A DNA stretch of 64,000 nucleotides from Candidatus Moranbacteria bacterium RIFOXYB1_FULL_43_19 (GTDB lineage Bacteria; Patescibacteriota; Minisyncoccia; Moranbacterales; UBA11712). Below the pieces are notes generated by a model, which saw nothing but the letters and a program-made list of their open reading frames with translations, did no database searches and was not told the DNA's origin. A program made the translations under genes and the position numbers. Positions within the stretch are counted from its first letter, which is position 1, and each line of letters begins with the position of its first letter. Location: the NCBI GenBank assembly GCA_001784875.1, contig MFSH01000008.1:1555-65554 (forward strand), read 5' to 3'. Below, in pieces: positions 6,137 through 53,325 of this stretch.

Positions 6137-6315
6137 AGAGCCCCGCACCATGCCTTTTGCGTTTTGCTTCACATGCTTTTAAAATTATATCCTGCTGGAA
6201 GCGAAAATCGCCGTGGCGTATTCTGCGGTACGGGGTAAATTATGATATAATCTAGGAAAACAAGGAAGCGCGTTCGCAAGAATGCTTCATCCAAAATGAT
6301 TTGCCAAGAACCAAA

Positions 6316-7623
6316 ATGAAAAAAATATTTTCTAAAGTAAAATTATTTCCCATATATTCAGCAAATATCGGAGTAGTATTTTTAGCTGTTCTTCTTTTTG
6401 GGAAAATGGGAACAGGGGCGGCGGTGCCGTCCCAGAAGGAAATTATCAAAACCAGAATCGATGACCTCCGCAAGCAAATAGAAATATATCAAAAAAATAT
6501 TGAGGAAAAAAACCACAAGGAAGAGTCGCTTTCAAATGATATTGAAATCCTTGAAGCCGACATAAAAAAGATTGAGCTTCAAATTCAGGAAACAAATCTT
6601 CAAATTGACGCCCTTGAGGGAGAAATAACTCAGAAAGAAATTGAAATTGAAAAAATGCAAAAGCAGCTTGAGGCAAAGAAAGAGATGCTGGCGAAATTTT
6701 TGCAGGAGCTTTATGAAAAGGGCGGGGGAGAAACATCTGAGATTGTATTCAGTGGGCAAAGCTTTTCGGATTATTTCTCCAAAATCGAGAGCCTTGAAAG
6801 TTTTGAAGACCAGATCAAAGAGACACACGACCAATTGGAAGCTTCGCGGAATGTGCTCAAAGGCGAGAAAGAAAATTTGGTGGACAAAAAAATAGACAAG
6901 GAAAATTTGAGAGGTATGCAGAATGACCAGGAAAGATCACTAGAGCGCGAAAAACAAATGGAGACACTATTGATTTCCCAAGTCAGAAATGAAAGGCAGG
7001 CTCTGGAAAAAAATGTAGGCAGGCTCCAAGCGGAACTAAGCGAGCTCCAGTCGCTTGGCGAGCCAATCAATTTGGAAGAAGCGGTAAAGGCGGCGAAATA
7101 CGCTGCGGATCTCACGGACGTGGCGCCTGAATTTTTGCTAGGGGTGCTTCGGGTTGAATCGGGACTGGGAACGAACGTCGGCGGCGGAAAATACAAATCG
7201 GACATGAATCCGTCTCAGTGGGATACTTTTAAAAAAATTTGCAAAGAGCTTGGGCTCGATCCGGACAAAACTCCCGTTTCCCGCCGGGCTTGCTACAACA
7301 GTGAGGCGAGTGACGGATGCGGTGGATGGGGAGGGGCGATGGGTCCAGCTCAATTTATGCCTTCGACCTGGATGGGATATAAGAGCCAAATCGAAAAAAC
7401 CACGGGCCGCTCTCCGGCCAACCCATGGGACGTCGAAGATTCTCTTGTGGCCATGGGTTTGAAACTCGGGTCAGTTGAAGGAGTGAAAGCGGGGGATAGG
7501 AAAGCTTGGGCAAAAGCGGCGGGAATGTATCTCGCGGGTTCTAACTGGGAAAAGTATTCCTGGTATTCAGACAGGGTTCTTTATTACGCGGACGGGTTCA
7601 AAAAAATAATGAAAAAATATTGA
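6316..7623 (+). CDS. coiled-coil protein with a C-terminal lytic-transglycosylase (SLT)-like domain
   Basis: A signal/TM segment is followed by about 250 aa of heptad-rich coiled coil. It ends in an SLT-like domain (LRVESGLGTN...GPAQFMPSTW). The ATG at 6316 is preferred over the TTG at 6301. Confidence 0.6.
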   Translation: MKKIFSKVKLFPIYSANIGVVFLAVLLFGKMGTGAAVPSQKEIIKTRIDDLRKQIEIYQKNIEEKNHKEESLSNDIEILEADIKKIELQIQETNLQIDALEGEITQKEIEIEKMQKQLEAKKEMLAKFLQELYEKGGGETSEIVFSGQSFSDYFSKIESLESFEDQIKETHDQLEASRNVLKGEKENLVDKKIDKENLRGMQNDQERSLEREKQMETLLISQVRNERQALEKNVGRLQAELSELQSLGEPINLEEAVKAAKYAADLTDVAPEFLLGVLRVESGLGTNVGGGKYKSDMNPSQWDTFKKICKELGLDPDKTPVSRRACYNSEASDGCGGWGGAMGPAQFMPSTWMGYKSQIEKTTGRSPANPWDVEDSLVAMGLKLGSVEGVKAGDRKAWAKAAGMYLAGSNWEKYSWYSDRVLYYADGFKKIMKKY

Positions 7624-7680
7624 TTGGAAAATGGGGACTATTTTTGTCAAGTTTTTTGTCAGAAATTTACGCAGGTTCGA

Positions 7681-7709
7681 TTGACGAATTGCAAAAATAG
7701 TTATATAAT
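7681..7709 (+). promoter_or_regulatory. sigma70-like promoter (TTGACG, 17 nt spacer, TATAAT)
   Basis: The -35 hexamer TTGACG lies at 7681-7686 and the -10 hexamer TATAAT at 7704-7709, with a 17 nt spacer. Confidence 0.3.
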
Positions 7710-7715
7710 AATAGC

Positions 7716-7820
7716 GTAGAATCCAATAACGGGGGATTTGCGCCCCGGCGAAAAAGCGCCGCTTCGCGGCAATTTCACGGGGCGAGAAGGGTGATTTACA
7801 TGGGTGTAAATCGCTTTTTT
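7716..7820 (+). ncRNA. candidate structured leader or small RNA ending in an intrinsic terminator, upstream of the CAP-domain gene
   Basis: GC-rich hairpins (CGGGGGATTTGCGCCCCG, GCGCCGCTTCGCGGC) are followed by the terminator GATTTACA-tggg-TGTAAATC plus TTTTTT at 7793-7820. The longest ORF in the element is 9 aa. Confidence 0.3.
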
Positions 7821-7854
7821 GATTACTAAAAAATAATAATAATTCATATAACTT

Positions 7855-9264
7855 TTGGAGTGGGGTGAGCTCAAACGCTTGATGGCAGAATTCCTTTATC
7901 GGGTGAAACGGGTGAGTCATGTGAATAGGGTGAGCTCAAAAAGAATACTGGCGGAAGATTCGGCCAATTTTGATGTTGGAAAAATTTCTCTTCCTCGGCT
8001 TTCTGACGGGCTGTTTCTTTTTGGCACGGTAGCCCTCTCGGCTGCTTTCTTCCTGTTTGTCATATTGATAAATACGGCTTGGGCATCTTCCATCACAAAA
8101 AATAAAGTTATTGAACTGGCGAACGCGGACAGAAGGGAAAAGGGAGTTGAGGAACTCAAAGAAAACGAGAAGCTTTCGCAAGCTGCCGCAAGCAAAGCCG
8201 AGGACATGATAGTCAACAATTATTTTTCCCATACTTCTCCTGAAGGATTGACACCCTGGCGCTGGATTGAAAAAACCGGTTATGAATACAGTTATGCCGG
8301 GGAAAATTTGGCAATGGATTTTACCTCGGCCGAAAAAATGAACGAGGCTTGGTTGGCGAGCCCAACCCATCGCGCCAACATTTTGAATGAAAAATACAAA
8401 GAAATTGGCGTAGCGGCAAAAGACGGATTTATAAACGGGCATGCGACAACCATTATTGTCCAGATGTTTGGCTCCGGGGACAAAAGCGCTCCCAAGGAAG
8501 AGGAGGCAGGCGAGCCATCAGAAAAAGAGACAGTCGCCGATCAGGGAAACCTTGTTCCTTTCTTGCCGGCCAGCGGCGAGAGAGCAGACAAATTATCACT
8601 TGCCAGTCCCTTGATTACTTCCCCGCGAAATGCCGAGACACTAAATAACAAAAATATAAATATTGTCGGACGGGCCAATCCTCACAGCGCGGTGACAGTT
8701 TTTGACAATGGGACGGCTGTAGGGGACATTATTTCCGATGCCCAAGGCTGGTTCAGGCTGGAGATCAAAGATGCCTCCGAAGGCAGCCACGATTTGATGG
8801 CTACGGCGGAAAGTGTTGCTGCAGGAAGAAAAGAAATCCGGATATCCGATAAAATATCGTTTCGGGTTGACCGCGAAAAGCCTTCGCTAAACTACCATTT
8901 GTATGCCGACAGCCAGGATGGCAAATATATCGTCCGTGTATTTTCAAATAAAAAGAATTGCTATTTCGAACTGGGAGGGAAAAAGTCGCCAAAGAGCTCC
9001 ACAGGCGTGGCAACTTTTTCCGTTGAGACCCGCCAGTCGTCAATTGTGGCCATAGTATCGGATCAGGCTGGAAACAAAACAAAAAAACAAATTGTCCTCG
9101 CGAATTATTTTGCCGGAAGCAAAAAAGGCATTTTTGACAATCTGGCACTTTCTTTCTCACCCCGAACCGCCCTTTCGGATGATTCAGGAAGAAAGATGCT
9201 TGCGCAAAATTTGGGCCTTGTCTCTCACCACTTTCCACAATTAGCAGATGATAATCAAAAATAA
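7855..9264 (+). CDS. secreted or membrane-anchored CAP/SCP-domain protein (YkwD-like) with C-terminal Ig-like region
   Basis: A TM anchor is followed by the CAP domain (NYFSHTSPEG...AGENLAMDF...WLASPTHRANIL). The start is uncertain because the 5' end carries GGGTGAGCTCAAA repeats. Confidence 0.6.
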   Translation: MEWGELKRLMAEFLYRVKRVSHVNRVSSKRILAEDSANFDVGKISLPRLSDGLFLFGTVALSAAFFLFVILINTAWASSITKNKVIELANADRREKGVEELKENEKLSQAAASKAEDMIVNNYFSHTSPEGLTPWRWIEKTGYEYSYAGENLAMDFTSAEKMNEAWLASPTHRANILNEKYKEIGVAAKDGFINGHATTIIVQMFGSGDKSAPKEEEAGEPSEKETVADQGNLVPFLPASGERADKLSLASPLITSPRNAETLNNKNINIVGRANPHSAVTVFDNGTAVGDIISDAQGWFRLEIKDASEGSHDLMATAESVAAGRKEIRISDKISFRVDREKPSLNYHLYADSQDGKYIVRVFSNKKNCYFELGGKKSPKSSTGVATFSVETRQSSIVAIVSDQAGNKTKKQIVLANYFAGSKKGIFDNLALSFSPRTALSDDSGRKMLAQNLGLVSHHFPQLADDNQK

Positions 9265-9797: not shown

Positions 9798-11054
9798 ATG
9801 TCATATTTTGAAATAATCGGGGGAAGAAAATTGAATGGAGAGATCGAAGTGAAAGGCGCCAAGAACGCGGCCTTGAAAGCCGTAGCGTCGGCTCTTTTGT
9901 CGCGTGAAAAATGGACAATTACCAATCTCCCGCAAATCGAGGATATAAGCCGGATTTTGGAAATGGTGGAAGATTTGGGCGCGGAAGCAAAAAGAAGCAA
10001 AAATAAAGTTGAAATTCAAGCCAAAAACATCAAAAAAAGCCGTTTAAGCGAGAGACTGGCCGGAAAACTACGGGCTTCGATAATCCTGGCCGGACCGGTT
10101 CTGGCGCGAACGGGAAAAGTTTCCATGCCTTATCCGGGAGGGTGCGTGATCGGCAAGCGCCCCATTGATTTGTTCCTCGCCGGATTCCAGAAAATGGGAG
10201 CCAAAGTGAAATGGCAGGATGACCATTTCAGTTTGTCCGCCAAAAAACTAAAAGGCGCGAAAATATTTTTTCCAAAAATAACCGTGACGGGAACAGAAGC
10301 CATGATGATCACGGCGGTTGTAGCGGAAGGAGAGACGATTCTTGAGAACGCTGCCATGGAACCGGAAATTCCGGCTCTGGCGGAATTTCTCAATCGCTCT
10401 GGCTCAAAAATATCAGGCGCCGGAACGCCGACCATCAGAATAAAAGGGGTGAAAAAAATCGGAGGCGGCCGGATGAAAATTATTCCGGACCGGATCGAAA
10501 CAGGGACATTTGTCATACTCGCGGCGCTTTGCGGAGGAAAAATAAAAATCAAGAACTGCAATCCGGACCATATCAGAGCATTCCTTGCGAATATTCAAAA
10601 AGCGGGTGTCCGGATCGAGGAAGAAAATAACGAGCTTGTCGTTTGGGGAGCGGAAAAAATAAATCCGGTCAACGTGTCAACCCACGAATATCCAGGATTT
10701 GCGACTGATCTTCAGCCGCCTTTCACGCTGCTCATGACGCGGGCCAGGGGGACAAGCCAAATTCACGATCCTATTTTTGAAGGGAGACTGCTTTTCACGG
10801 ATATTTTGAATTCGATGGGAGCGAATATTGTTCTCAATGATCCGCATCGGGCGACGGTTCAAGGGCCGACGAAACTGCGAGGGAGAAAAATTGCGAGCCC
10901 TGATCTTCGGGCGGGGATTACACTTCTTCTTTCCGGACTCATCGCGAAAGGGAAAACGACCGTTGAGAATATTTATCAGATTGACAGGGGATATGAAAGG
11001 ATTGAGGAGAGGCTGCAAAAGTTGGGAGCAGATATCAAGCGAATCGAGAAATAA
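9798..11054 (+). CDS. murA: UDP-N-acetylglucosamine 1-carboxyvinyltransferase
   Basis: The N-terminus reads MSYFEIIGGRKLNGEIEVKGAKNAALK. An active-site Cys lies in the PYPGGCVIGKRPID region (characteristic MurA/EPT fold). The ATG at 9798 is preferred over the upstream TTG. Confidence 0.9.
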   Translation: MSYFEIIGGRKLNGEIEVKGAKNAALKAVASALLSREKWTITNLPQIEDISRILEMVEDLGAEAKRSKNKVEIQAKNIKKSRLSERLAGKLRASIILAGPVLARTGKVSMPYPGGCVIGKRPIDLFLAGFQKMGAKVKWQDDHFSLSAKKLKGAKIFFPKITVTGTEAMMITAVVAEGETILENAAMEPEIPALAEFLNRSGSKISGAGTPTIRIKGVKKIGGGRMKIIPDRIETGTFVILAALCGGKIKIKNCNPDHIRAFLANIQKAGVRIEEENNELVVWGAEKINPVNVSTHEYPGFATDLQPPFTLLMTRARGTSQIHDPIFEGRLLFTDILNSMGANIVLNDPHRATVQGPTKLRGRKIASPDLRAGITLLLSGLIAKGKTTVENIYQIDRGYERIEERLQKLGADIKRIEK

Positions 11055-11058
11055 AAAT

Positions 11059-11190
11059 AAAATCCTAAATCCTAAATCCTAAACTCTAAACAATATCAAA
11101 ATTCAAATTATAAAAATTCAAAACCGTTTTGAAAATTTGTATTTTTGAATTTGAATTTGTTTAGGATTTAGTGCTTAGTGCTTAGGATTT
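11059..11190. repeat. long (~130 nt) near-perfect palindrome between murA and mreB, ending in a T-run; likely acts as a terminator
   Basis: The left arm AAATCCTAAATCCTAAATCCTAAACTCTAAACA mirrors the right arm TGTTTAGGATTTAGTGCTTAGTGCTTAGGATTT. The spacer is itself palindromic. TTTTTTATTTT follows. Confidence 0.5.
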
Positions 11191-11198
11191 TTTATTTT

Positions 11199-12206
11199 AT
11201 GTTTATCAAAAAAATCGGCATTGATTTGGGAACCGCCAACACCCTTGTCTTTCTTCCGGGCAAGGGGATTGTTGTCAATGAGCCGTCTGTTGTGGCTATT
11301 TCCCTCATTGACAATAAGATTCTGGCGGTCGGTAACGAAGCCAAGGAAATGATGGGGAGAACGCCCGAATCCATCACCGCCCAAAGACCCCTGAAAGACG
11401 GTGTAATTGCGGATTATCGGATTACAGAAGCTATGCTTCGCTACTTTATAAACAAAGTAAGCGGCGGTTTTCGGCTAGTGCGACCCGAGGTTATGATTTC
11501 GATTCCGGCCGGAGTCACGTCGACAGAGCGCCGGGCGGTTATTGACGCAGCGGTAAAAGCTGGCGCCAAAACGGCCTATGTCGTCAAAGAGCCGGTTCTG
11601 GCGGCGATTGGAGCGGGGATTCCCATCAACAGTGCGGCGGGAAATATGATTGTTGATATTGGAGGAGGAACGAGCGAAGTGGCAATCATATCTCTCGGAG
11701 GAATTGTGGCGGCTCACAGCGCGCGGGTGGGGGGAAACAAGATAGACCAGGCAATTGCCGATTTCATAAAAAAGAAGCATGGCCTCGCCGTCGGGGAACG
11801 GACAGCCGAGGAAATAAAAATCGCGATCGGGAGCGCCATGCCGCAGACAAAAGATGAATATGTCGAAGTGCGAGGACGCGATCTCATCGCGGGACTTCCG
11901 AAAACAATCCGTGTTTCAGCGAATGAAATGACGGAAGCCATCCAAGACGAGCTTCGGGAAATCATAAACGCGATCAAAAGGGTTCTTCAGGAAACGCCAC
12001 CTGAATTGGCAGCGGACGTAATTGACAAGGGAATGATTCTTTCGGGAGGCGGAGCGCTGCTCCGGAATCTCGATCAGCTTATCACAAAGACAACCGGTGT
12101 TCCGTGCTATGTCGCGGATGATCCGCTTCTTTGCGTCGCAAAAGGAACGGGAATTGCTCTCGAACATCTGGAGATGTATAAGAGAACTATAATGATGTCG
12201 AAATAA
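11199..12206 (+). CDS. mreB: rod-shape-determining protein MreB (paralog 1)
   Basis: The N-terminus reads MFIKKIGIDLGTANTLVF and the actin-fold motifs are present. The ATG at 11199 is used because the track's GTG at 11178 lies inside the palindrome. Confidence 0.9.
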   Translation: MFIKKIGIDLGTANTLVFLPGKGIVVNEPSVVAISLIDNKILAVGNEAKEMMGRTPESITAQRPLKDGVIADYRITEAMLRYFINKVSGGFRLVRPEVMISIPAGVTSTERRAVIDAAVKAGAKTAYVVKEPVLAAIGAGIPINSAAGNMIVDIGGGTSEVAIISLGGIVAAHSARVGGNKIDQAIADFIKKKHGLAVGERTAEEIKIAIGSAMPQTKDEYVEVRGRDLIAGLPKTIRVSANEMTEAIQDELREIINAIKRVLQETPPELAADVIDKGMILSGGGALLRNLDQLITKTTGVPCYVADDPLLCVAKGTGIALEHLEMYKRTIMMSK

Positions 12207-12297
12207 ATCACGAAACACGTAACACAAAAAGAAATGAATTAGGCGAGTTATTATTTAGTTCGGAGTATAGAGTTATGTGCTATGTGTTATGAGTTAT

Positions 12298-13404
12298 ATG
12301 ACTATTGGAATTGACGCCAGTCGCGCGTTTCAAAAAAACAAAACCGGGATTGAAGAGTATTCCTATCAGGTTATCAAGCTCCTGCGCGATTTTTTTAAGG
12401 GCGATCAAGTGATTTTATATTGCAATCCGGCGATAAATATAAAACCGGATTTTAGCTTTCCCGAAAATTGGCAGGTGAAAAATTTGCGCGCGCCGATTTT
12501 TTGGACGCAGGCAAGGCTGTCGCTTGAAATGCTGTTTCATCCCGTGGACGTGTTATTCGTGCCAGCGCATACGGTGCCGCTCATCCATCCCAAAAATACA
12601 ATTGTCACTGTCCACGGCCTTGAATTTGAATTTTGCCCGAAAGCCTATTCGCCTTGGCAAAGATTTTATATGCGCTTCGTGATCAAAAATTCCTGCCGTT
12701 GGGCGAAAAAAATAATCGCAGTGAGCGAGAATACGAAGTCTGACTTAATATCAAAATATAATGTTGATGAAAAAAAAATAAAAGTAATATACGAGGGCTA
12801 CAGCGAGTATAATTTTCAATTTCCAATTTCAAATTTTAAATCGAGTCCAAATAATAAAATTTCAAATTATAGAGGTTACATCTTATTCATAGGGCGCCTC
12901 GAGAATAGAAAGAACATCAATGGTATAGTTGAGGCCTTTGAAATTCTGAAAGAGAAATACAAAATTGCGCATAAATTGATCCTGGTTGGCAAGTTTGGCT
13001 ATGGAGGGGATAAAATAAAAGAAAAAATATATAAAAGCGAATACAAAAACGACATTATTTTGACAGGATACGTGAGCGAAGAGGATAAATATTATTTGCT
13101 GAAAAGCGCGGGTATGTTTTTGTTCCCGACATTTTATGAAGGGTTTGGACTGCCGATTCTCGAAGCGCAGAAGGTCGGCACGCCGGTCGTCACTTCGAAT
13201 GTTTCTTCAATGCCGGAAGTGGCAGGGGATGGGGCGGTTTTGGTTGACCCGAAAGATCCGGGCGCGATTGCGGAAGCGATTTATAAGCTCGTCTCGGACG
13301 AAAGCTATAAAAATGATATAATAGAAAAAGGCCTTGCGAACGTGAAAAGATTTTCGTGGGAAAAATGCAGCCGCGAAATCGCGGATGTAATTCGTAATTT
13401 GTGA
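12298..13404 (+). CDS. GT4-family glycosyltransferase
   Basis: The N-terminus reads MTIGIDASRAF and the retaining-GT EX7E motif (FPTFYEGFGLPILEAQKVGTPVV) is present. The start may be at 12277, 12289 or 12298. Confidence 0.8.
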   Translation: MTIGIDASRAFQKNKTGIEEYSYQVIKLLRDFFKGDQVILYCNPAINIKPDFSFPENWQVKNLRAPIFWTQARLSLEMLFHPVDVLFVPAHTVPLIHPKNTIVTVHGLEFEFCPKAYSPWQRFYMRFVIKNSCRWAKKIIAVSENTKSDLISKYNVDEKKIKVIYEGYSEYNFQFPISNFKSSPNNKISNYRGYILFIGRLENRKNINGIVEAFEILKEKYKIAHKLILVGKFGYGGDKIKEKIYKSEYKNDIILTGYVSEEDKYYLLKSAGMFLFPTFYEGFGLPILEAQKVGTPVVTSNVSSMPEVAGDGAVLVDPKDPGAIAEAIYKLVSDESYKNDIIEKGLANVKRFSWEKCSREIADVIRNL

Positions 13405-13914: not shown

Positions 13915-15093
13915 ATGATTTCGAATCACTCTATCACAACTAATAAACTTCGTCAAGGATTCAAAGTGGCTCTTGTCCACGATTTTCTGAACCAACACGG
14001 CGGGGCGGAGAGGGTGCTTTTGGCGTTGCACGAGATATTTACCGAAGCGCCGATTTATACTTTGCTTTATGACCCTCAAAAAATGCGGGGGAAATTCAAG
14101 GACGCCGACGTTCGGCCGTCGTTCCTTCAAAAATTTCCGAAGTTTTTGAAAAAGCGACATAAGTGGCTTTTGCCTCTTATGCCGACTGCGCCGGAGACTT
14201 TCAACCTTCGGGATTTTGATCTGGTGATTTCTTCTTCGAGCGCTTTCGCCAAGGGAATAATAGTCAAACCAAAAACAATTCACATCTGCTACTGCCACAG
14301 CCCCATGAGATACGCCTGGGATTGGAACGAAAAATATCTCGACGAGCAGGGGCTGGGCACGAAAAGACGGATCCTGGCGCGGCTTCTTCTCAATTATGTC
14401 CGGATGTGGGACAAAGTGGCGGCGGACCGGGTGGATTTTTTCATCGCCAATTCAAAATATACCAGGGAGAGAATAAAAAAATACTATGGCTGCGAAAGTG
14501 CGGTCGTTTATCCGCCAGTGGATATTTCTTCCAAGACTAAATCTGGGAGCGATTTCCAAGACTTAGTCTTGGAAAAACGGGGTTACTTTTTGATTGTTTC
14601 CCGGCTATCGCCATACAAGAAAGTTGAAATCGCCGTGGAAGCCATGAACAAATTGAATCTTCCGCTCTTGGTAATTGGAGAAGGTTCTCCGAAATACGTG
14701 AAATACCTGAAATCAATCGCGGGGCCGAAAACGAAATTTCTGGGATTCCTACCGGATGAAATGATAAAAAAATATTTTTTCGGATGCCGAGCCTTCATTT
14801 TTCCGGGAGAAGATGATTTTGGAATCGCACCGGTTGAAGCCATGTCTTTTGGAAAGCCGGTGATTGCTTTCCGGCGGGGAGGAGCCATGGAAACGGTTGT
14901 CGAAGGAGAAACGGGAGAATTTTTTAACGAGCCAACAATTGAAGTTCTGGCCGACGCGGTGCGCCGGTTCCAGGAAAATGAAAAAAATTATGACCCGGAA
15001 AAAATCCAGCATCAGGCGCAAAAGTTTTCAAAAGAAAAATTTCGGGAGCATTTTTTGGAGGAAATTGAAAAAATAATACAAATACGCGATTGA
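13915..15093 (+). CDS. GT4-family glycosyltransferase
   Basis: The N-terminus has KVALVHDFLNQHGGAERVL and the C-terminus has the EX7E motif (FPGEDDFGIAPVEAMSFGKPVIA). It carries an in-frame CCAAGACTTAGTCTTGG repeat at 14531-14572. The ATG at 13915 is preferred over the TTG at 13858. Confidence 0.8.
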   Translation: MISNHSITTNKLRQGFKVALVHDFLNQHGGAERVLLALHEIFTEAPIYTLLYDPQKMRGKFKDADVRPSFLQKFPKFLKKRHKWLLPLMPTAPETFNLRDFDLVISSSSAFAKGIIVKPKTIHICYCHSPMRYAWDWNEKYLDEQGLGTKRRILARLLLNYVRMWDKVAADRVDFFIANSKYTRERIKKYYGCESAVVYPPVDISSKTKSGSDFQDLVLEKRGYFLIVSRLSPYKKVEIAVEAMNKLNLPLLVIGEGSPKYVKYLKSIAGPKTKFLGFLPDEMIKKYFFGCRAFIFPGEDDFGIAPVEAMSFGKPVIAFRRGGAMETVVEGETGEFFNEPTIEVLADAVRRFQENEKNYDPEKIQHQAQKFSKEKFREHFLEEIEKIIQIRD

Positions 15094-15570: not shown

Positions 15571-16398
15571 ATGCAAAATGATTTTTCTCCAAAAATAAAA
15601 ACCTATCTCGACCGGCTGGCGGCCTCACCCAAGCGGCCGAATTCCTTTTTGTTTGCCGGGGCGCAGCGAACGGGGAAAGCGGAAGCGGCGGAATATTTTG
15701 TTTCGAAACTGGCCCAAAAAACGGGAGATGCGGAATTTTTACGAAGGTTCAGGGGAAAAGTCCATCCGGATGTGGTTGTGATCGAGCCAGAAACTGTCGA
15801 AGACAAAAAGGGCAGGATCCGGGAAAAAGAAATCACAGCTTCGCAAATCCGAGAGGCGTGCCAAAGGCTGAAATTTTTTCCTTATGAGCTTGAAAAAAAG
15901 TTCTGCCTTATCAAAAAATCCCAGCGAATGAATGCCGAAGCTTCGAACGCGCTTCTCAAAATTCTCGAGGAGCCGACAAAAAGCACTTTTTTTATCCTTC
16001 TGGCAGGCGACACCGATTCGGTTTTGCCGACAATTTCTTCGCGCTGCGCTGTCTTGAGGTTTCCCAGGACAGAGCTTCCCGTTTGGAACGAAGAAAACCG
16101 CGAGAAGTTCCGAAATATTTTCAAGGAAGAAATCTTTGAAAAATTCGATTATATTGAAAAAATTTCCCGCGACAAAAATGAATTTTCCGGGATTCTCAAA
16201 GATTGGGAAGCAGTGGCGGCGGAAGGGATGCGAAAACTTGCGACAGGAGACCAGGGAGGCGGGAACAATTTGGGGAAAATGAAAAAAGTTGCGGTCTTGC
16301 TTGAGAATATCAGGGAAGCTATCGATCAACTGGAGCGCACAAACGCGAGTGCGAGGGCAGTGGGGGAGAAATTGATGTTGGAAATGAGTAGTGGGTAA
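15571..16398 (+). CDS. holB: DNA polymerase III delta-prime subunit (AAA+ clamp-loader subunit)
   Basis: The product carries FAGAQRTGKAEAAEYF, the sensor motif NALLKILEEP and the SRC-like SRCAVLRF. Confidence 0.75.
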   Translation: MQNDFSPKIKTYLDRLAASPKRPNSFLFAGAQRTGKAEAAEYFVSKLAQKTGDAEFLRRFRGKVHPDVVVIEPETVEDKKGRIREKEITASQIREACQRLKFFPYELEKKFCLIKKSQRMNAEASNALLKILEEPTKSTFFILLAGDTDSVLPTISSRCAVLRFPRTELPVWNEENREKFRNIFKEEIFEKFDYIEKISRDKNEFSGILKDWEAVAAEGMRKLATGDQGGGNNLGKMKKVAVLLENIREAIDQLERTNASARAVGEKLMLEMSSG

Positions 16399-16493
16399 CG
16401 AGGCAGTGAGCAGTGGGATTGGCCGTGTGTCTTGAGTTGTGAGAAAAAAATCCTATAACTCACTGCTAATGACCTGGCTCACAGCCCACAGCC
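16390..16493. repeat. family E intergenic imperfect inverted repeat (GTGAGCAGTGGG ... CACTGC...CTCACAGCCCACAGCC)
   Basis: Related copies lie at 18297-18417, 25105-25222 and 31630-31735. Each sits immediately downstream of a gene. Confidence 0.5.
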
Positions 16494-16532
16494 ATGTTAC
16501 TAATGACTAAAATATATGCTATAATTCGCAAT

Positions 16533-17737: not shown

Positions 17738-18295
17738 ATGCTTGACCAAATCATCCAAAAATCAAAGCCGGAAATGGAGAAGGCGGTTGAGAGGTTCAGG
17801 GAGGAAATCGCGAAACTTCGCACAGGCCGGGCCAATCCGGCGATGGTGGAAAATCTGCCAGTTGACTATTACGGCGCCAAAAGCCCCCTAAAACAGGTGG
17901 CGAGCATCACTGTTCCCGAACCGCGGCTCGTTGTCATCACTCCCTGGAACAAGGACAATTTGGTTGACATCGAAAAAGCCGTGAGCGAATCGGGGCTGGG
18001 GCTGAACCCGACCAATGACGGACAAGTCGTCCGGATTGCCATTCCGCCTCTCAACGAGGAGCGCCGGACGGAGCTTGTGAAAGTTTTGGGAAAATATTCC
18101 GAGGAGGCGCGCGTATTAATTCGGCAGGCGCGTGAAGAGGCTTGGGATGAAATACAGGATATGGTGAAAAATGGAAAATTGGGCGAAGACGCGAAATTCA
18201 AAGGAAAGGAACAGCTCCAGAAATTGATTGATGAATATAACGGGAAAGTAGAAGAAGTGAGGGGGAAGAAAGAGAAGGAAATTATGGAAATATAG
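17738..18295 (+). CDS. frr: ribosome recycling factor
   Basis: The N-terminus reads MLDQIIQKSKPEMEKAVERFREEIAKLRTGRANPAMVENLPVDYYG. The ATG at 17738 is preferred over the track start. Confidence 0.9.
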   Translation: MLDQIIQKSKPEMEKAVERFREEIAKLRTGRANPAMVENLPVDYYGAKSPLKQVASITVPEPRLVVITPWNKDNLVDIEKAVSESGLGLNPTNDGQVVRIAIPPLNEERRTELVKVLGKYSEEARVLIRQAREEAWDEIQDMVKNGKLGEDAKFKGKEQLQKLIDEYNGKVEEVRGKKEKEIMEI

Positions 18296-18296
18296 T

Positions 18297-18417
18297 TTTA
18301 GTAACATAGCAGTGGGCGGTGAGACTGGTTGTGGGCAGTGGGTCATGATAAAATTTTTCCAGTGACTAACGACTCACGGCTATTCCCGCTACTCACAGTC
18401 TTGTTACCCACAGCTTT
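18297..18417. repeat. family E intergenic imperfect inverted repeat
   Basis: AGCAGTGGGCGGTGAG...GTGGGCAGTGGG pairs with CCCGCTACTCACAG...CCCACAGC. Confidence 0.5.
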
Positions 18418-18419
18418 TT

Positions 18420-19823: not shown

Positions 19824-20876
19824 ATGCTTTCAAAAATATTCGGGAAATTTTCAAAAGATATCGGGATTGACCTTGGAACGGCCAACACTTTGGTTTATGT
19901 CCGTGACAAGGGAATCGTCATCAACGAGCCCTCGGTGGTGGCCGTCAACCAAAAAACGGGACAGATCCTGGCTATCGGCTCCGAGGCCAAAAAAATGGTC
20001 GGGAAAACTCCTTCGCATATTGTTGCCACGCGGCCTCTCGTTGATGGAGTTGTTTCTGATTTTGAAGTTACGGAACAGATGCTTCGCTATTTCATCGAAA
20101 AAGTCCATCAAGGAAGTTCGGCCTTTTTTTCCCGCCCCCAAGTGGTGATCGGAATTCCATCGGGAGTGACTGAAGTGGAAAAAAGAGCGGTGGTCGACGC
20201 GGCAGTCAGTGCCGGAGCGCGAAAAGCCTATCTTGTCGACGAGCCTATGGCGGCGGCTATCGGTGCCCGGCTTCCAGTCCAGGAGGCTTCAGGGAATATG
20301 ATAGTTGACATTGGAGGCGGCACGACGGAAATTGCGGTGATATCGCTTGGTGGAGTGGTTGTTTGCCGGAGTCTCCGTATTGCGGGGGACGAAATGAACG
20401 AAGACATTATCCGCTTCGCCCGGGACGAATTCAACCTTCTTCTTGGGGAAAAAACAGCTGAAGATATCAAAATTGCCATCGGGAGCGCCTATGAGCTCAA
20501 TGAAGTTCTGGAAATGCCGATGCGCGGAAGAGATCTCGTGACGGGCCTTCCTAAAGAAGTAATTGTGAACGATGCCCAAATCCGGGAAGCTATTTTCCGG
20601 TCGATAAAGATTATCGTCAACAATATCAAGTCAACTATTGAAGAAACTCCTCCGGAGCTTCTTTCTGATATAATGCAAAGGGGAATAATCCTGGCCGGCG
20701 GCGGGAGCCTCATTCGGGGGATCGAAAGGCTTATTTCCGAGCAAACTGATATGCCTGTCCGGGTAATGGATGATCCTCTGACGGCGGTTGTCCGGGGAAC
20801 GGGAATAATTCTTGAACACATTGACGAGTTGAAAGATATTTTGACGGAAACGCAGTACGATAAGGTATCTTTTTAG
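19824..20876 (+). CDS. mreB: rod-shape-determining protein MreB (paralog 2), followed by mreC, mreD and PBP2
   Basis: The N-terminus reads MLSKIFGKFSKDIGIDLGTANTLVYV. Confidence 0.9.
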   Translation: MLSKIFGKFSKDIGIDLGTANTLVYVRDKGIVINEPSVVAVNQKTGQILAIGSEAKKMVGKTPSHIVATRPLVDGVVSDFEVTEQMLRYFIEKVHQGSSAFFSRPQVVIGIPSGVTEVEKRAVVDAAVSAGARKAYLVDEPMAAAIGARLPVQEASGNMIVDIGGGTTEIAVISLGGVVVCRSLRIAGDEMNEDIIRFARDEFNLLLGEKTAEDIKIAIGSAYELNEVLEMPMRGRDLVTGLPKEVIVNDAQIREAIFRSIKIIVNNIKSTIEETPPELLSDIMQRGIILAGGGSLIRGIERLISEQTDMPVRVMDDPLTAVVRGTGIILEHIDELKDILTETQYDKVSF

Positions 20877-20970
20877 TAGCTGGTAGCTAGTATATGGTAT
20901 CTGGTATATTTTTTTTGATATCAATAAAATAAAATACTAAATACTAAATAACAGATACCAAATACAAGTC
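20874..20970. repeat. family B repeat (GGTATCTGGTAT / ATACTAAATACTAAATA...GATACCAAATAC)
   Basis: The same motifs occur in-frame in the MiaB-like gene at 711-750 and 983-1024. Confidence 0.45.
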
Positions 20971-21774
20971 ATGACATTTTTTTCCCGCAAAAACACAAAA
21001 TTCATATTCACGGTTGTTCTTCTGCTATTCATTGTTTTTCTTTCTTTCCGCGGGGCGGATAATCCGGTCAAGGGAACGACTCTCTGGCTGATCAGCCCGT
21101 TTATGAAGACTTTCCGCATTTTTTCCGGAGGCGTCCAGGGCTTTTTTCACTTTCTCGGATCAATTGGCGAGCTCAAAGAAGATAATGAAAAACTGCTGAA
21201 TGAGAATCAGAACCTTTCGGCGGAAATCGCAAGGCTCAAGGACACGGCGGAGGAGAACAAGGTTTTGAGATCAGAAATGAGCCTTATCCCAAAGGCAAAA
21301 TATGACCTTGAAGCAAGTTTTGTGATCGGGCAAGACGCACTGGGCTCGGGAAGTTCGATTTTCATAGATAAGGGAGAAAATAAGGGAATCAGAGAAGGTA
21401 TGGCGGTCATTGTTTCAAATGGTATTCTGGTCGGGAAAATAAATCAGGTTTTTCCGGATACATCAAAAGTGGTTCTTATTTCCGACCGGGAAAGCGCTAT
21501 AGCCGGTGAAGTTTTGGAATCGGGAGCGAAGGGTATAATCAGAGGAACATACGGGCTCGGGACCATGATGGATATGATTTCTCAGGCTGAAGTTGTCAAA
21601 GAAGGAGATACGGCCATCACATCAGGTTTGAGAGGAGGTATTCCGAGAGGATTGCTTATTGGAAAAATCGGGCAAGTCGAACAATCAGAAGACAAACTTT
21701 TCCAGCAAGCCACAATTTTTCCGTCAGCCAATTTTTCCTCCCTCAAAGTTGTTTTTATTGTGAAAAGTTTCTAA
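20971..21774 (+). CDS. mreC: rod-shape-determining protein MreC
   Basis: An N-terminal TM segment and a coiled coil are followed by the beta domain (GDTAITSGLRGGIPRGLLIGKI). Confidence 0.8.
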   Translation: MTFFSRKNTKFIFTVVLLLFIVFLSFRGADNPVKGTTLWLISPFMKTFRIFSGGVQGFFHFLGSIGELKEDNEKLLNENQNLSAEIARLKDTAEENKVLRSEMSLIPKAKYDLEASFVIGQDALGSGSSIFIDKGENKGIREGMAVIVSNGILVGKINQVFPDTSKVVLISDRESAIAGEVLESGAKGIIRGTYGLGTMMDMISQAEVVKEGDTAITSGLRGGIPRGLLIGKIGQVEQSEDKLFQQATIFPSANFSSLKVVFIVKSF

Positions 21775-24991: not shown

Positions 24992-25104
24992 TATTTCTAT
25001 TGTTTTATCGGAGAGCTAATGGGTTAACGAGTTATATTACAACAAGCACTGGATGAAAGTCCGGGCTTGTTTTTTTGTGGGGGAAAAGATAATATATAGT
25101 CATT

Positions 25105-25222
25105 GGGAACAAGGTTGTGAGCAGTGAGTTAGGTCTTTGGTCATGGGTCTTTGGGGGCTCAATTCCCACAGCCAATGAATCATGACTAGTCCCACTGCCC
25201 ACTGCTTCGTTACTCACAGCCA
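25105..25222. repeat. family E intergenic imperfect inverted repeat
   Basis: GTGAGCAGTGAG ... CCCACTGCCCACTGC...CTCACAGCC. Confidence 0.5.
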
Positions 25223-25227
25223 AATTT

Positions 25228-28730: not shown

Positions 28731-29921
28731 ATGTCTGAAAAAATAGACTTATCACCTATAAAAGAAATGGAACTCCGGGCGTCTCGCATTCCCGGAGTTG
28801 TTTCGCTGGCGCAGGGCGTGCCGTCTTTTGACACTCCGGAAACAGTGAAAAGCGCGGCCATTGAAGCGATTGAGAAGGGGAAGGTGGCCAAATATTCTCT
28901 GGCGCCGGGAACTCTTGAATTCCGGGAAGCAATTGCCCAGCATCTGGAAAAGGAAAACAAATTTTTTGACTTTGAGAAGGAAGTCATCGCCACTGCCGGA
29001 TCCATCGAGGCAATCACGGCGACACTTCTGGCGATTATCGAACCGGGTGACGAAGTTCTGATTCCGGATCCGACTTACACTTCATACCAGTCGGCTATCA
29101 AAGTTGCCCGGGGAGTTCCCGTTTTTGTTCCGCTCGATGAAAAAAATCATTGGGCACTCGACATTGAGAAATTCGAAAAACTCATCACACCGCGGACGAG
29201 AGCTTTTCTTTTTTGCAATCCCAACAATCCGACTGGAACCGTATTTGCTCGCAACCAGCTGCACGCGCTGGCGCAACTGGCCATCAAGCACAATTTATAC
29301 ATTTTGAGCGACGAAGTTTATAAGGATTTCGTCTTTGATTCCGGGGAAAAATTATATTCTCTTGCCGAACTTCGCGGCATCCGTGACCGACTCGTCTACA
29401 TATATTCCTTTTCCAAAGCCTATGCCATGACCGGCTGGCGGATAGCATATCTCGCCACGCATCAGGATCTATCCGCGCGCATTCTGGCGGTTCATGACGC
29501 GCTGGTCACCTGCGCGCCGGTCATTTCCCAATTCGCGGCCCAGGCGGCGCTTGAGATGGCCGATAAGGAGGTCATGCGTTTTAGAAATTATTTCCGGAAA
29601 AGACGGGACCTCATCTGCAAAAGACTGGACAAACTCAGCCACGTTTTTGAATATCAGAAACCGGACAGCGCCTATTTTGTGTTTCCCCGGATAAAAAAGG
29701 ATATTCTGCAAAAAATTGCCCCTGATGGCGGTTCCTGGCAGTTTGCGATAGAATTATTGGAGAAAGCCAAAGTGGCTACAGTCCCCGGTTCGGCTTTCGG
29801 TCCCAACGGCGAAAACCATATCCGGATGTGTTTTGGAAGGAGCGAAGAAGATATTAATTTGGCCTTTGACAGGATGGAAAAATATTTCAATGAACAAGGA
29901 ACAAAGATCAACGATCAATAA
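28731..29921 (+). CDS. class I/II PLP-dependent aminotransferase (AspC family)
   Basis: The PLP-lysine motif SFSKAYAMTGWRIAY is present. Confidence 0.8.
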   Translation: MSEKIDLSPIKEMELRASRIPGVVSLAQGVPSFDTPETVKSAAIEAIEKGKVAKYSLAPGTLEFREAIAQHLEKENKFFDFEKEVIATAGSIEAITATLLAIIEPGDEVLIPDPTYTSYQSAIKVARGVPVFVPLDEKNHWALDIEKFEKLITPRTRAFLFCNPNNPTGTVFARNQLHALAQLAIKHNLYILSDEVYKDFVFDSGEKLYSLAELRGIRDRLVYIYSFSKAYAMTGWRIAYLATHQDLSARILAVHDALVTCAPVISQFAAQAALEMADKEVMRFRNYFRKRRDLICKRLDKLSHVFEYQKPDSAYFVFPRIKKDILQKIAPDGGSWQFAIELLEKAKVATVPGSAFGPNGENHIRMCFGRSEEDINLAFDRMEKYFNEQGTKINDQ

Positions 29922-29967
29922 TTTTTTGTTCGTTGTTCTTTGATCATTGATCATTATCTAGGTAAGT

Positions 29968-30748: not shown

Positions 30749-31627
30749 ATGGCTTTTTTCCGCAAAAAAGAAAAAAACAAAAGTTGGAAGCGCAAGAAAA
30801 CAAAAATATATTCCGGTGTGCCGAAAAGGGAAAAACAAGAAAAAAAGGGCCGCTTCAGTCGATTCCTTTTTTGGATCTTGCTTTTGGGATTTTTGGGAGT
30901 ATGTGGATACCTTCTTTTTTTCTCGCCTTTTTTGGATGTGGACTCCATAGCTGTCGATGGAAACAAAGAAATACCGTCGGAGCAAATAGTCGAAAAAGCG
31001 AACGGCGCAATAGAAGGAAAATATTGGGGCTATCTTTCGAAACGTAATTTTCTCCTTGTCAGCAAGAATGCCATAAATAGTCAGCTGAAAAGCAGCTTCA
31101 ACCGGCTCGAAATTTCTTCAATCGAAAAAAAGTTTCCCCGGACAATTTTTATCAAAGTCAAGGAGCGCCAGCCGGAGCTTGTCTGGTGCAGCGGGGGAGT
31201 CTGCTATCTGGCTGACAAAAACGGCCTGATCTATTCCGGAGCCAACGCGACAGACGAACAGATAAACAAAGAACGTTTTCTGGTCGCGATTGATGACAAC
31301 GCCCGGCCGGTTGAAATAGGAAAAAATACTCTCGGCGAAAACTTCATCCAATATCTCAAAGAGATTGACGCGGTTCTTGTAAATGACCTCGGGTTTTCAA
31401 TTGACGGAAAATACCATACCCCCGCCCTTTCTTCGCAGGAAATCATTGTGAAAATCAAAGAGGGTGAAGGCTGGACGCTGAAGCTTTCCAGCTTGATTTC
31501 CCCCGGGGAGACAAAAAAAATTCTCGAAACGGTTTTCGAGAAGGATCTATCGGGGGACAAAAGGATCCGATTGGAATATTTGGATTTGAGGGTGAAGGGT
31601 AAGGTGTATTATAAACTTAGGTCATAA
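30749..31627 (+). CDS. FtsQ/DivIB-like cell division protein (POTRA domain)
   Basis: A basic N-terminus and a TM segment are followed by a POTRA-like region (SIAVDGNKEIPSEQIVEKA). Confidence 0.6.
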   Translation: MAFFRKKEKNKSWKRKKTKIYSGVPKREKQEKKGRFSRFLFWILLLGFLGVCGYLLFFSPFLDVDSIAVDGNKEIPSEQIVEKANGAIEGKYWGYLSKRNFLLVSKNAINSQLKSSFNRLEISSIEKKFPRTIFIKVKERQPELVWCSGGVCYLADKNGLIYSGANATDEQINKERFLVAIDDNARPVEIGKNTLGENFIQYLKEIDAVLVNDLGFSIDGKYHTPALSSQEIIVKIKEGEGWTLKLSSLISPGETKKILETVFEKDLSGDKRIRLEYLDLRVKGKVYYKLRS

Positions 31628-31629
31628 GA

Positions 31630-31735
31630 AACAAGCGGTGGGCGGTGGGTCTAGCCGTGGGCCATTAGTTATTAGTTTCCCATGACCCAAGACCGGTGAC
31701 CTGCCCCATTACCAATGACCTAGTTACCAATGACT
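31630..31735. repeat. family E intergenic imperfect inverted repeat
   Basis: AGCGGTGGGCGGTGGG ... CCCATGACCCAAGACCGGTGACC. Confidence 0.5.
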
Positions 31736-31769
31736 TATTATTGCTCCAAAGTTCAAGATAATATAGAAA

Positions 31770-41746: not shown

Positions 41747-41949
41747 AAGTTGATATGGAAATAGCGACGCTTTTGGCGTAATTTCTAATTTCTGATACCC
41801 AATTTCCAATAAAATGTCCAATATTAAAAATTAAAATTTTTGTAATTGGGCATTTAGATTTTTATTAGAAATTAGATGTTAAATATTGGAATTTTGACGG
41901 GAAGTTTATTTACGGTGATATTGCATAAATAAATATTTACGGATCTTTT

Positions 41950-42474
41950 ATGGCACAACAATTATATCAGGAGCCTATCGAAAAGGAGGATTTGGATTTG
42001 GCGAAAAAGTTAAAAAGTGATATTCCAGCCGCGGGCGCAGGAAAAGTACCAGAAAATGTGGAAACGAAAAAAACGGAAATTACTGAAATTCCGGAAGTAC
42101 CGGTGCCGGAGGCTGAAAAAGCCACGGGAGTTGAATCTGAAATGGGAGGAGAAAAAAAGGCCGAGGAAGTTTCCGAAAAAATTGAAACCGTCCGGAAATC
42201 GATCCAAACCCAAAAACCGACGGCCGGGGCGAGCGTGGCTTCGGACGCGGGAACAGTTTCGCAAATCACAGAATATGAAAAAAAAGTGGAAAAACTGGTC
42301 GAAATGGCGCTCCAAAAAGGCCCGGAGCACGCGATCAAAGTCGCGCGGCACATGGACAAAGGAAAGTCTCCCAGCCAGGCGGATAACTATACCCTCGATG
42401 AAATCCACGACCGTCTTTTGGAAGAGAGTCTTCGAAAACAACTTATTCAGAAAGGACTATTAAAAGAATTATAA
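41950..42474 (+). CDS. hypothetical acidic protein
   Basis: A clean ORF flanked by AT-rich spacers. Confidence 0.4.
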   Translation: MAQQLYQEPIEKEDLDLAKKLKSDIPAAGAGKVPENVETKKTEITEIPEVPVPEAEKATGVESEMGGEKKAEEVSEKIETVRKSIQTQKPTAGASVASDAGTVSQITEYEKKVEKLVEMALQKGPEHAIKVARHMDKGKSPSQADNYTLDEIHDRLLEESLRKQLIQKGLLKEL

Positions 42475-42621
42475 ATTTTTAATTTAGAATTTCGAAATAA
42501 TTTCAAATGATATAATTTTGAAACATTAAAGCATTGGAACATTATTTCAAAATTAAAAATTGGAAATTCAAAATTGTATATCAGAATATTCTTCTTAAAA
42601 TAAAAACAAAAACATATTTAG

Positions 42622-45156: not shown

Positions 45157-45283
45157 ATAAAAAAGTAAAAATGAATAAGTAAAAGTTTCGGTACTCGCTT
45201 CGCTCGTTTTTTTTATAAATTAATATCGCGAAGCGAATCCTTAGCCTTTAGTTTTTCGCTTTTAATTTTTAATTTATATCGTT

Positions 45284-45421
45284 ATGACCGACGAAACTAC
45301 AACTCCGATGACGGATGCTCCGGCAACGGATGCTCCGGCTGCTCCGGAAGCTCCGATGGCTTCTCCAGTGGAACCGACTCCGGAAATGCCTCCAGCGGAA
45401 GAAGCTCCGAAAGCCGAGTAA
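45284..45421 (+). CDS. candidate 45 aa Pro/Ala/acidic peptide (MTDETTTPMTDAPATDAPAAPEAPMASPVEPTPEMPPAEEAPKAE)
   Basis: An ATG-to-TAA ORF that is too short for the ORF track. It lies just downstream of the T4CP-like gene and just upstream of a terminator, and it has no obvious SD. Confidence 0.25.
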   Translation: MTDETTTPMTDAPATDAPAAPEAPMASPVEPTPEMPPAEEAPKAE

Positions 45422-53254: not shown

Positions 53255-53325
53255 TTTGTAATTGGGATAATTTTCACTACAACTAGTTGTAGTGAGTTTT
53301 ACTACTATATATAGTAGTAAAATAA
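53231..53325. repeat. family D 3'-end element (GACGTAATTCGTAAATCGTAATTTGTAATTGGG plus two perfect hairpins)
   Basis: It supplies ...DVIRKS-stop to uvrA. The hairpins CACTACAACTAGTTGTAGTG and TTTACTACTATATATAGTAGTAAA follow. Confidence 0.5.

Follow-up and report, generated by a model that had tools for sequence, protein, structure and literature searches.

What are the imperfect inverted repeats that recur between protein genes in a 64-kb stretch of Candidatus Moranbacteria bacterium RIFOXYB1_FULL_43_19 (contig MFSH01000008.1; the whole 64,000-nt stretch is referred to as the window)? The host belongs to the candidate phyla radiation (CPR) and has a compact genome of the ~1-Mb class. The repeats, termed Family E, were described in an initial annotation as four ~110-nt intergenic elements resembling repetitive extragenic palindromic (REP) sequences or miniature inverted-repeat transposable elements (MITEs). 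Family E is found here to consist of degenerate heptamers arranged in a fixed order, and complete E-type arms flank open reading frames (ORFs) of the PF05635 family at several independent sites, which is the new point of this analysis. The reading that we favor, with a probability of roughly 0.55, is that Family E is an ORF-less cassette akin to the intervening sequences (IVSs) of rRNA genes, lying between protein genes, copied without target-site duplication, and forming a stem that would be processed by RNase III or block exonucleases. The 7-nt periodicity and the link to an IVS-protein cassette are the most informative features of the family, and neither was recognized in the initial annotation.

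Copies and heptamer architecture of Family E

All four copies proposed for the window are present: when any one was left out, nhmmer detected it with a model of the remaining three (E-values of 1e-12 to 1e-23 per copy). Each is an imperfect inverted repeat, rich in G in its 5′ arm and in C in its 3′ arm, and their length of 123–131 nt somewhat exceeds the ~110 nt first ascribed to them. As had been proposed, they are alike yet not identical, with a mean column identity of 70% in their alignment. The model-defined limits of the four copies (c1–c4), and a degenerate fifth remnant, are as follows.

16387–16512: Family E copy c1; left arm ~16387–16443, A-rich loop, right arm ~16455–16512
18296–18419: Family E copy c2; occupies the entire spacer between frr (stop 18293–18295) and rseP (ATG 18420)
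25095–25227: Family E copy c3; ends 2 nt 5′ of the lysS ATG (25228), probable lysS 5′ untranslated region
31617–31745: Family E copy c4; flanked by two convergent genes, ftsQ-like and PMT (stop at 31770)
1332–1420: degenerate E-like remnant (nhmmer E 2e-3 to 8e-3); between thrS and miaB, which both lie on the − strand

The neighbors of the elements in the window are housekeeping genes (holB, BNR lipoprotein, frr, rseP, mreBCD, pbp2, greA, lysS, serS, and ftsQ-like). The copies had been placed just after stop codons, which holds for c1, c2, and c4, where the stop falls inside the first unit (c1 and c4) or directly before it (c2): the holB stop TAA (16396–16398) lies inside the c1 unit GGGTAAC, and the ftsQ-like stop (31625–31627) lies inside the first c4 unit, GGTCATA. 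It does not hold for c3, which begins ~105 nt past the greA stop, 3′ of a canonical hairpin + T7 terminator and a −10-like box. Nor does each copy precede a next gene, as c4, the most decayed of the full-length window copies, is flanked by convergent genes. Since Family E is a quasi-palindrome, the reverse complement of which scores equal to the forward strand in nhmmer, a shared orientation of the copies carries no information. A core-like motif, GAGGGCAGTGGG, was also observed at 16353–16364 within the holB coding sequence (CDS), at a distance of 35 nt on the 5′ side of c1; chance would account for it, or else it is the remnant of an older unit taken into the ORF.

Chance likeness of GC-rich motifs, an explanation that short cores considered on their own would permit, is ruled out by shuffles and leave-one-out searches, and its probability is negligible. 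At one mismatch or fewer, GTGRGCRGTGRG occurs eight times in the window as compared to 0.76 expected, none of 100 shuffles reached eight, and every leave-one-out E-value was 1e-12 or lower. Seven of the eight matches fall within the four elements, and clusters of GTGRG/CYCAC in the 64 kb are confined to the sites of these elements.

Family E measures ~125 nt, with each arm comprising eight degenerate heptamers (56 nt) in fixed order within the frame (GGTCATT)GGTAACAAGG...CCTTGTTACC(AATGACC). The left-arm consensus reads tt GGTCATT GGTAACA AGGCnGT GGGCnGT GAGACAG GTCnTTG GTCATnG GTCATTa and is followed by a ~10-nt A/T loop; the right-arm consensus reads CCAATGA CCAAnGA CCnATGA CCAGnCC CACTGCC CACAGCC TTGTTAC CAAnGAC T aaaa or, in an alternative register, ends CCTTGTTACC AAnGACT aaaa. 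The termini GGTAACAAGG and CCTTGTTACC are conserved among copies, and the terminal inverted repeats amount to the whole quasi-palindrome. Arm autocorrelation was 0.448 at lag 7 and 0.345 at lag 14, as compared to 0.19–0.29 at the remaining lags, and the only near-invariant positions are the periodic GG/CC. Copies were separated cleanly by nhmmer, with register slips by whole heptamers. Period 7 is not confined to Family E: at a match above 0.6, 153 sliding windows across the 64 kb were periodic at lag 7 versus at most 20 at any other lag, and spacers of relatives are likewise enriched.

Copies beyond the window were detected with a 23-nt degenerate outer-arm pattern, which matched 14 stretches among metagenome contigs and none among viral contigs. 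Application of nhmmer to these and later loci yielded 19 distinct full-length copies on at least nine other contigs, together with several half copies, in support of the proposal of a dispersed intergenic family with defined ends that reaches beyond the window. In locus L044, two copies 1.4 kb apart (L044a and L044c) share a 117-nt stretch without a single difference (100% identity), running from GGTCTTTGGCAAC to GTTACCAAT, and have unrelated flanks, which defines the extent of the copied unit.

These copies bear on whether the elements could instead have grown in place, each by slippage of its own heptamers as proposed for cyanobacterial and Xanthomonas simple sequence repeats (SSRs), with their likeness due to convergence. 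Such growth would accord with the many flavors of period 7 in the window and in spacers of relatives, with one exact 7-nt indel between orthologous arms of loci L034 and L036, and with the over-representation of heptamer SSRs in bacteria (PMC4692102). However, the 19 copies, across genomes and contexts, have in common the order of eight variants, the loop, and the GGTAACAAGG/CCTTGTTACC block, which is not a repeat; two loci agree perfectly over 117 nt, and the leave-one-out E-values are incompatible with independent origin. In-situ growth is thus largely refuted by the conserved unit order, and we regard it as very improbable.

PF05635 reading frames between E-type arms

In L036, a locus of Moranbacteria RIFOXYB1_FULL_43_19, and in its orthologue L034, a 134-aa ORF replaces the loop of a complete 8+8-unit E hairpin. 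This ORF matches PF05635 (23S_rRNA_IVP, E 5e-21) and TIGR02436 (four-helix-bundle protein, E 6e-18). Homologues of this intervening-sequence protein (IVP) gave 2,624 matches and are numerous in Moranbacteria, Falkowbacteria, and Parcubacteria. The IVP ORF is wedged between co-directional genes, chiefly of housekeeping and polysaccharide-synthesis functions, in contexts such as dnaE–IVP–thrS–IVP–miaB, mazG–IVP–gatB, glycosyltransferase clusters, and ABC transporter–IVP–pyruvate kinase. Every IVP ORF examined has arms of heptamer type on both sides, with complementarity that is at least partial (and in L055 only partial). At the UbiA-neighbor, dnaE–thrS, and thrS–miaB sites, the left half of the E model matched just 5′ of the IVP ORF and the right half just 3′ of it (E 1e-5 to 1e-10). 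The thrS–miaB spacer carries E-armed IVP cassettes in L047–L050 and L056, and in the window holds the degenerate remnant only. The flavor of the arms differs among more distant IVPs: those at 63–66% identity (L061 and L062; alignment A6) have GGTTTAT/GGCAGCC arms, and the very divergent IVP L047a (25% identity) has CAAGAAA arms. In L052/L053 (Moranbacteria GW2011_GWE1_36_7), a cluster resembling a diversity-generating retroelement (RVT_1 fragments plus a bAvd/PF05635-like gene) was observed at 6736–8165, between dnaE and an E-armed IVP cassette; its Avd gene is without heptamer arms.

This arrangement is reminiscent of the IVSs of rRNA genes. These are stem-loops, bordered by inverted repeats and with the PF05635 ORF present or absent, that RNase III cleaves and that are viewed as selfish (PMC4990558). 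In CPR bacteria, rRNA genes contain 23S_rRNA_IVP ORFs and, in addition, many short ORF-less insertions (PMC11270868). Shared with Family E are a long stem of terminal inverted repeats, an optional PF05635 ORF in the loop, and short ORF-less forms (PMC4990558, PMC11270868); IVSs, known from 23S and 16S rRNA genes of Leptospira, Coxiella, and Salmonella and also from CPR rRNA genes, are likewise sporadic among sites and lineages, and both lack a transposase and a known mobility mechanism. From these parallels and the E arms around IVP ORFs follows the reading of Family E as an ORF-less IVS-like cassette. The two classes differ in that IVSs occupy rRNA helices (9/25/45 of 23S), whereas all E copies lie between protein genes, and in that the IVS stem is a near-perfect 20–30 bp, whereas E arms are 56-nt heptamer arrays whose excision by RNase III would be predicted by analogy.

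On the favored reading, the full form would hold a ~130-aa PF05635 gene exactly in the loop, and Family E would correspond in architecture to the stem-loop IVSs of rRNA, with protein genes as its neighbors. Copies would be placed in, or overwrite, very short AT-rich spacers by copying or gene conversion without target-site duplication, and heptamer slippage would subsequently alter the number of units. Lineages would amplify differing heptamer flavors, leaving orthologous spacers empty, filled by E, or filled by another flavor. Because the elements abut or overlap stop and start codons, they are probably transcribed within mRNAs, and the most likely consequence is that the double-stranded RNA stem would be processed by RNase III, block exonucleases, or both. 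The stem would thereby delimit and stabilize cistron ends, unlike a classical terminator. Genes for RNase III are present in Moranbacteria loci. The two forms could be related in either direction, the ORF having been lost from the one or having entered the loop of the other.

A further proposal, which we hold to be doubtful, is that the PF05635 protein and its heptamer inverted arms together make up a cassette that moves or maintains itself without a classical transposase. If so, the protein would recognize the 7-nt register of its own arm flavor, solo hairpins such as those of Family E would be non-autonomous derivatives, and rRNA IVSs would be a special case that landed in rRNA. PF05635 would acquire a function, and bacterial heptamer repeats a reason for being.

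The same arms might instead be protein-binding arrays in DNA or RNA, the GG/CC register forming a footprint with one unit per monomer (a PF05635 pentamer or a cold-shock/OB-fold protein) and the palindrome being secondary. Conservation of sequence while pairing is not conserved (see below), near-invariance limited to the periodic GG/CC positions, the shift of arm flavor with IVP clade, and in-frame heptamer arrays inside miaB would all be expected of such arrays, and CspB is reported to bind heptamer repeats with one protein per unit (as cited in PMC4679880). However, binding would be a prediction from sequence, co-variation of arm and IVP fits co-inheritance as one cassette equally well, and the window holds E copies yet no IVP gene within 64 kb. 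Binding arrays are therefore considered an unlikely account of the family.

Turnover, transcriptional context, and folding

Orthologous sites were compared in relatives identified by a PBP2-based scan with one genome per species, which gave 25 syntenic loci at 50–83% PBP2 identity, nearly all from Candidatus Moranbacteria/Moraniibacteriota; L001–L004 are ≥99.96% identical to the window and were uninformative as relatives. An identical LysS protein is encoded on contigs of GCA_036789825.1 and of Rifle-aquifer (ANAN16) assemblies, at loci with ≥99.96% identity to the window. The frr–rseP spacer measures 4–30 nt in eight relatives and 84–126 nt, with hairpins of differing flavors, in the window (E), L006, L007, L013, L014, L017, and L018. 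Between greA and lysS, an E copy occurs in the window and at the orthologous site of L030, a GAATT-flavor hairpin in L006, and a terminator, −10 box, and short leader without an element in L008, L011, L013, and others. The ftsQ–PMT spacer is occupied by E in the window and by the GAATT flavor in L006. Orthologous spacers are thus empty, E-filled, or of another flavor, consistent with elements being gained and replaced. One flavor tends to fill several sites of a genome, and the replacement of hairpins outpaces divergence of the genes around them.

Where an element is retained, its sequence is variably conserved. Orthologous E copies and arms of L034 and L036 are 73–79% identical as compared to 46–53% at third codon positions, and c3 and its L030 orthologue share 0.62 identity versus 0.54 in the adjacent spacer and 0.52–0.58 at third positions. 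Conservation of E reflects either constraint at the level of sequence or homogenization from a conserved pool. Beside Family E, a GGTATNT hairpin was observed to span the stop-to-start spacer between mreB and mreC (window 20864–20977, L005 148–278, L008 7295–7413, and L011 8481–8596). It is 0.75–0.87 identical across species versus 0.48–0.59 at third codon positions, the window and L005 have the same loop (100% identity), and it looks like a selectively maintained element. Different hairpins occupy this site in L006, L007, and L013, and L020 has a 3-nt spacer.

Family E is one flavor among many heptamer hairpins. Other flavors form hairpins in the window as GGTATNT (mreB–mreC), CCTAAAT (11036–11210), and CAATGAN (29877–29967), and in L006 as GAATTNN. 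The period-7 regions of other flavors in the window (CCTAAAT, CAATGAN, AATTTCN, and others), of which at least the first and fourth are stop-to-start hairpins, are the following.

11036–11210: period-7 region, CCTAAAT flavor
12248–12307: period-7 region
12799–12852: period-7 region
29877–29967: period-7 region, CAATGAN flavor
41769–41854: period-7 region
42466–42588: period-7 region
45232–45285: period-7 region
53235–53278: period-7 region

Period 7 was also seen at 48719–48771 and 51104–51145, within the uvrB and uvrA ORFs. In miaB, which is intact (− strand CDS, 2–1339), GTATCTG/GTATTTT arrays lie in frame at 697–768 and 980–1037 and encode ...KIQNTRYKIPDTKKKT... and ...KILNTKYQILNIKT...; their flavor is that of the mreB–mreC hairpin, and heptamer arrays thus colonize coding DNA too. 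A separate short repeat family consists of a perfect 24–25-nt palindrome, TTTCCAAGACTTAGTCTTGGAAAA, with four occurrences at 83–100% identity (14553–14577, 54187–54237, and 54808–54856), including two tandem pairs in or beside the uvrC region.

Could the elements be terminators or other regulatory RNAs, as the initial annotation suggested? Among the 19 copies, 13 lie between co-directional, 3 between convergent, and 2 between divergent genes, and the ends are mostly 0–9 nt from a stop or start codon; this combination fits the filling of very short spacers and not a dedicated terminator. The four window copies occupy four settings, namely the holB 3′ end, a stop-to-start spacer, the lysS leader, and a convergent pair. 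A co-directional cluster in L044 that resembles a type IV secretion system (T4SS) has four E copies placed between its consecutive genes. Genes of this kind were observed at L044 947–4130 (TraG/TraC/PrgI-like) and in the window at 42622–45156 (TrwB/VirD4-like coupling protein). Signals next to c1 and c3 are listed here.

25042–25076, + strand: intrinsic terminator of greA (stem + T7), located 5′ of c3; equivalent hairpin and T-run conserved in L006, L008, L011, and L030
25088–25098, + strand: −10-like box GATAATATATA, directly 5′ of c3; position kept in L011 (GATATAAT), L006 (GGTATACT), and L030 (GGTATTATAT)
16517–16525, + strand: extended −10 TGCTATAAT, 7 nt 5′ of the probable BNR lipoprotein ATG (16533); conserved in L006, L007, L008, and L017

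As greA has its own terminator 5′ of c3, c3 is not needed for termination, and the conserved −10-like box directly 5′ of c3 argues that c3 would be transcribed within the lysS leader. The extended −10 lies only 7 nt from the BNR ATG, suggesting a leaderless mRNA, and c1 would then lie where the holB transcript ends, 5′ of this putative promoter. Shine-Dalgarno motifs are absent before all mapped starts (e.g., 18420, 20971, and 25228), where the upstream sequence is A/T-rich. No U-tract or T-run adjoins any E stem. With c3 following a real terminator and copies found inside a gene cluster and between divergent genes, termination is unlikely as a general function of the family; the elements may have roles in mRNA stabilization or protein binding.

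Most copies fold into one long hairpin, with z-scores of −4 to −7. Ten of 13 non-window copies had z ≤ −4, and none of 200 shuffles was equally stable. Decay is comparatively advanced in the copies of the window (c1, −44.3 kcal/mol, z −4.2; c2, −43.6 kcal/mol, z −3.4; c3, z −2.0; c4, z −0.9). Stable folding, copies abutting stop and start codons, c1 and c4 at 3′-end positions, and identities of 0.73–0.87 versus 0.46–0.59 at third positions for orthologous E copies and the mreB–mreC hairpin are consistent with host RNA elements under selection, that is, intercistronic terminators, attenuators, or 3′-end stabilizers that set operon polarity and are alike through a shared functional consensus. 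Such elements are nevertheless difficult to reconcile with the canonical terminator and promoter-like box that precede c3, with four copies splitting one gene cluster in L044 and others between divergent genes, with stems that have no adjacent U-tract, with eight relatives that do with 4–30 nt between frr and rseP, and with a c3/L030 identity that hardly exceeds that of the neighboring spacer (0.62 and 0.54). Arms without compensatory co-variation and the absence of a sense-strand bias, detailed below, are further difficulties. Selection of host RNA elements as the explanation of the family is therefore judged improbable.

Several observations weigh against the favored reading of an ORF-less IVS-like cassette. 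The fold covariation check proposed in the initial annotation, run as an own-arm versus cross-arm test and by RNAalifold, gave no compensatory co-evolution of the arms: own-arm complementarity was 0.60 versus 0.653 across copies (mean rank 12.7 of 17), and the RNAalifold consensus was weak (−3.4 kcal/mol), with a covariation term of ~0 and consistent pairing only at the GG/CC anchors. That compensatory change is not visible weakens an RNA-structure function. Sense RNA was the more stable strand in eight copies versus five, which is not significant. No direct repeat flanks any of the 19 copies, including the identical pair L044a/L044c, whose 117-nt identity could result from gene conversion between pre-existing copies instead of transposition. 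No PF05635 gene was found in the 64-kb window, and copy counts for the window genome cover these 64 kb, which flanking proteins extended by ~1–1.5 kb per side. The window and all fetched loci showed no transposase, RAYT, or integrase (for RAYT, the related loci amounted to ~0.5 Mb), and PF05635 proteins are not known to have a catalytic activity. Finally, the one 23S gene inspected (L037, 5946–8844, on a 320-kb metagenome contig) has several stem-loop insertions, short and ORF-less, none of them E-like; as they are unrelated to E in sequence, they give no direct link to rRNA. The inserts at 6228–6298 and 7437–7500 are copies of a repeat, TTTTTGCGTTTRAGACGTCCRACTTCAGTCTGATGAGGTTGAGAAGTCGGACGTCTG, that contains a CUGAUGAG box, and those at 6654–6750 and 6805–6890 resemble helix-25-type IVS hairpins.

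Relation to known repeats and significance

Neither of the classes first suggested for Family E fits. Assignment as REP-like conflicts with 56-nt heptamer-array arms, where REP doublets consist of palindromes of about 20–40 nt, and with a hairpin without compensatory maintenance; no RAYT was seen in the window or in ~0.5 Mb of related loci. The MITE feature of terminal inverted repeats is present in Family E, but target-site duplication is absent, and the ORF-bearing relative encodes PF05635/TIGR02436 and not a transposase. REPINs (PMC3116915) are closer, being likewise symmetric ~100-nt extragenic hairpins in many copies, with genome-specific flavors and without classical target-site duplication, whose repeat arms flank a gene (RAYT in REPINs, IVP in E). 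They differ from Family E in that E arms are heptamer arrays and not 16–25-nt REPs, the flanked gene encodes a four-helix-bundle protein, no RAYT or Y1 transposase was seen with E, and the compensatory changes common in REPINs are absent.

Database searches returned no known counterpart: blastn against E. coli (5,426 genomes, 20,395 records) and searches of phage and plasmid collections gave zero matches to Family E, an Rfam search of the window at gathering thresholds found 2 tRNAs only, and a search at E ≤ 1 over 16–32 kb found nothing. Enterobacterial repetitive intergenic consensus (ERIC) sequences, or intergenic repeat units (IRUs), are 127-bp imperfect palindromes; Correia/NEMIS elements occur in Neisseria, and Correia RNA is an RNase III substrate. 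Family E resembles both as an imperfect palindrome of ~100–150 bp, transcribed (for E, by prediction) in intergenic positions next to ORFs and varying in presence between relatives. It differs in having no sequence similarity in the blastn search of E. coli genomes, no TA duplication (which Correia has), a 7-nt periodicity, and a CPR host. The inner E unit GGTCATT is presumably a register-shifted form of TTGGTCA, which we take to be the STRR2 unit.

Heptamer SSRs share the 7-nt unit, the intergenic position, and frequent termination at start codons (PMC4692102, PMC4679880). Those compared were the cyanobacterial short tandemly repeated repetitive (STRR) sequences, GGGGA(C/T)T of Nostoc, GGGAATC of Xanthomonas (some as inverted pairs), and TAACTGA of Beggiatoaceae (PMC4692102, PMC4679880). 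Their unit is homogeneous and head-to-tail, whereas E is a fixed series of eight variants mirrored in a hairpin and copied whole, tied to a PF05635 ORF, in a CPR genome of the ~1-Mb class. Integron attC sites were considered and rejected: the GGTAAC/GTTACC ends misfit RYYYAAC/GTTRRRY, the neighbors are syntenic housekeeping genes, and an integrase is absent. Every system compared has at least one defining feature, among those tested, that Family E does not show. By analogy, it would act like REPINs, ERIC, Correia elements, and rRNA IVSs; it is built like heptamer SSRs.

A practical consequence is that gene callers are misled where elements overlap stop and start codons (start calls differ); the elements could also be used as strain markers. 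Family E joins in one object three features that were described long ago and have lacked an explanation: the bacterial heptamer repeats of STRR type, the intergenic hairpins of ERIC/REPIN type, and the PF05635 protein of rRNA IVSs. Questions are thereby opened as to whether PF05635 proteins bind or mobilize heptamer arms, whether the IVS may be a general cassette in mRNA spacers, and whether RNase III cuts CPR operons at such sites. A streamlined CPR genome with scant intergenic space devotes much of that space to these hairpins.

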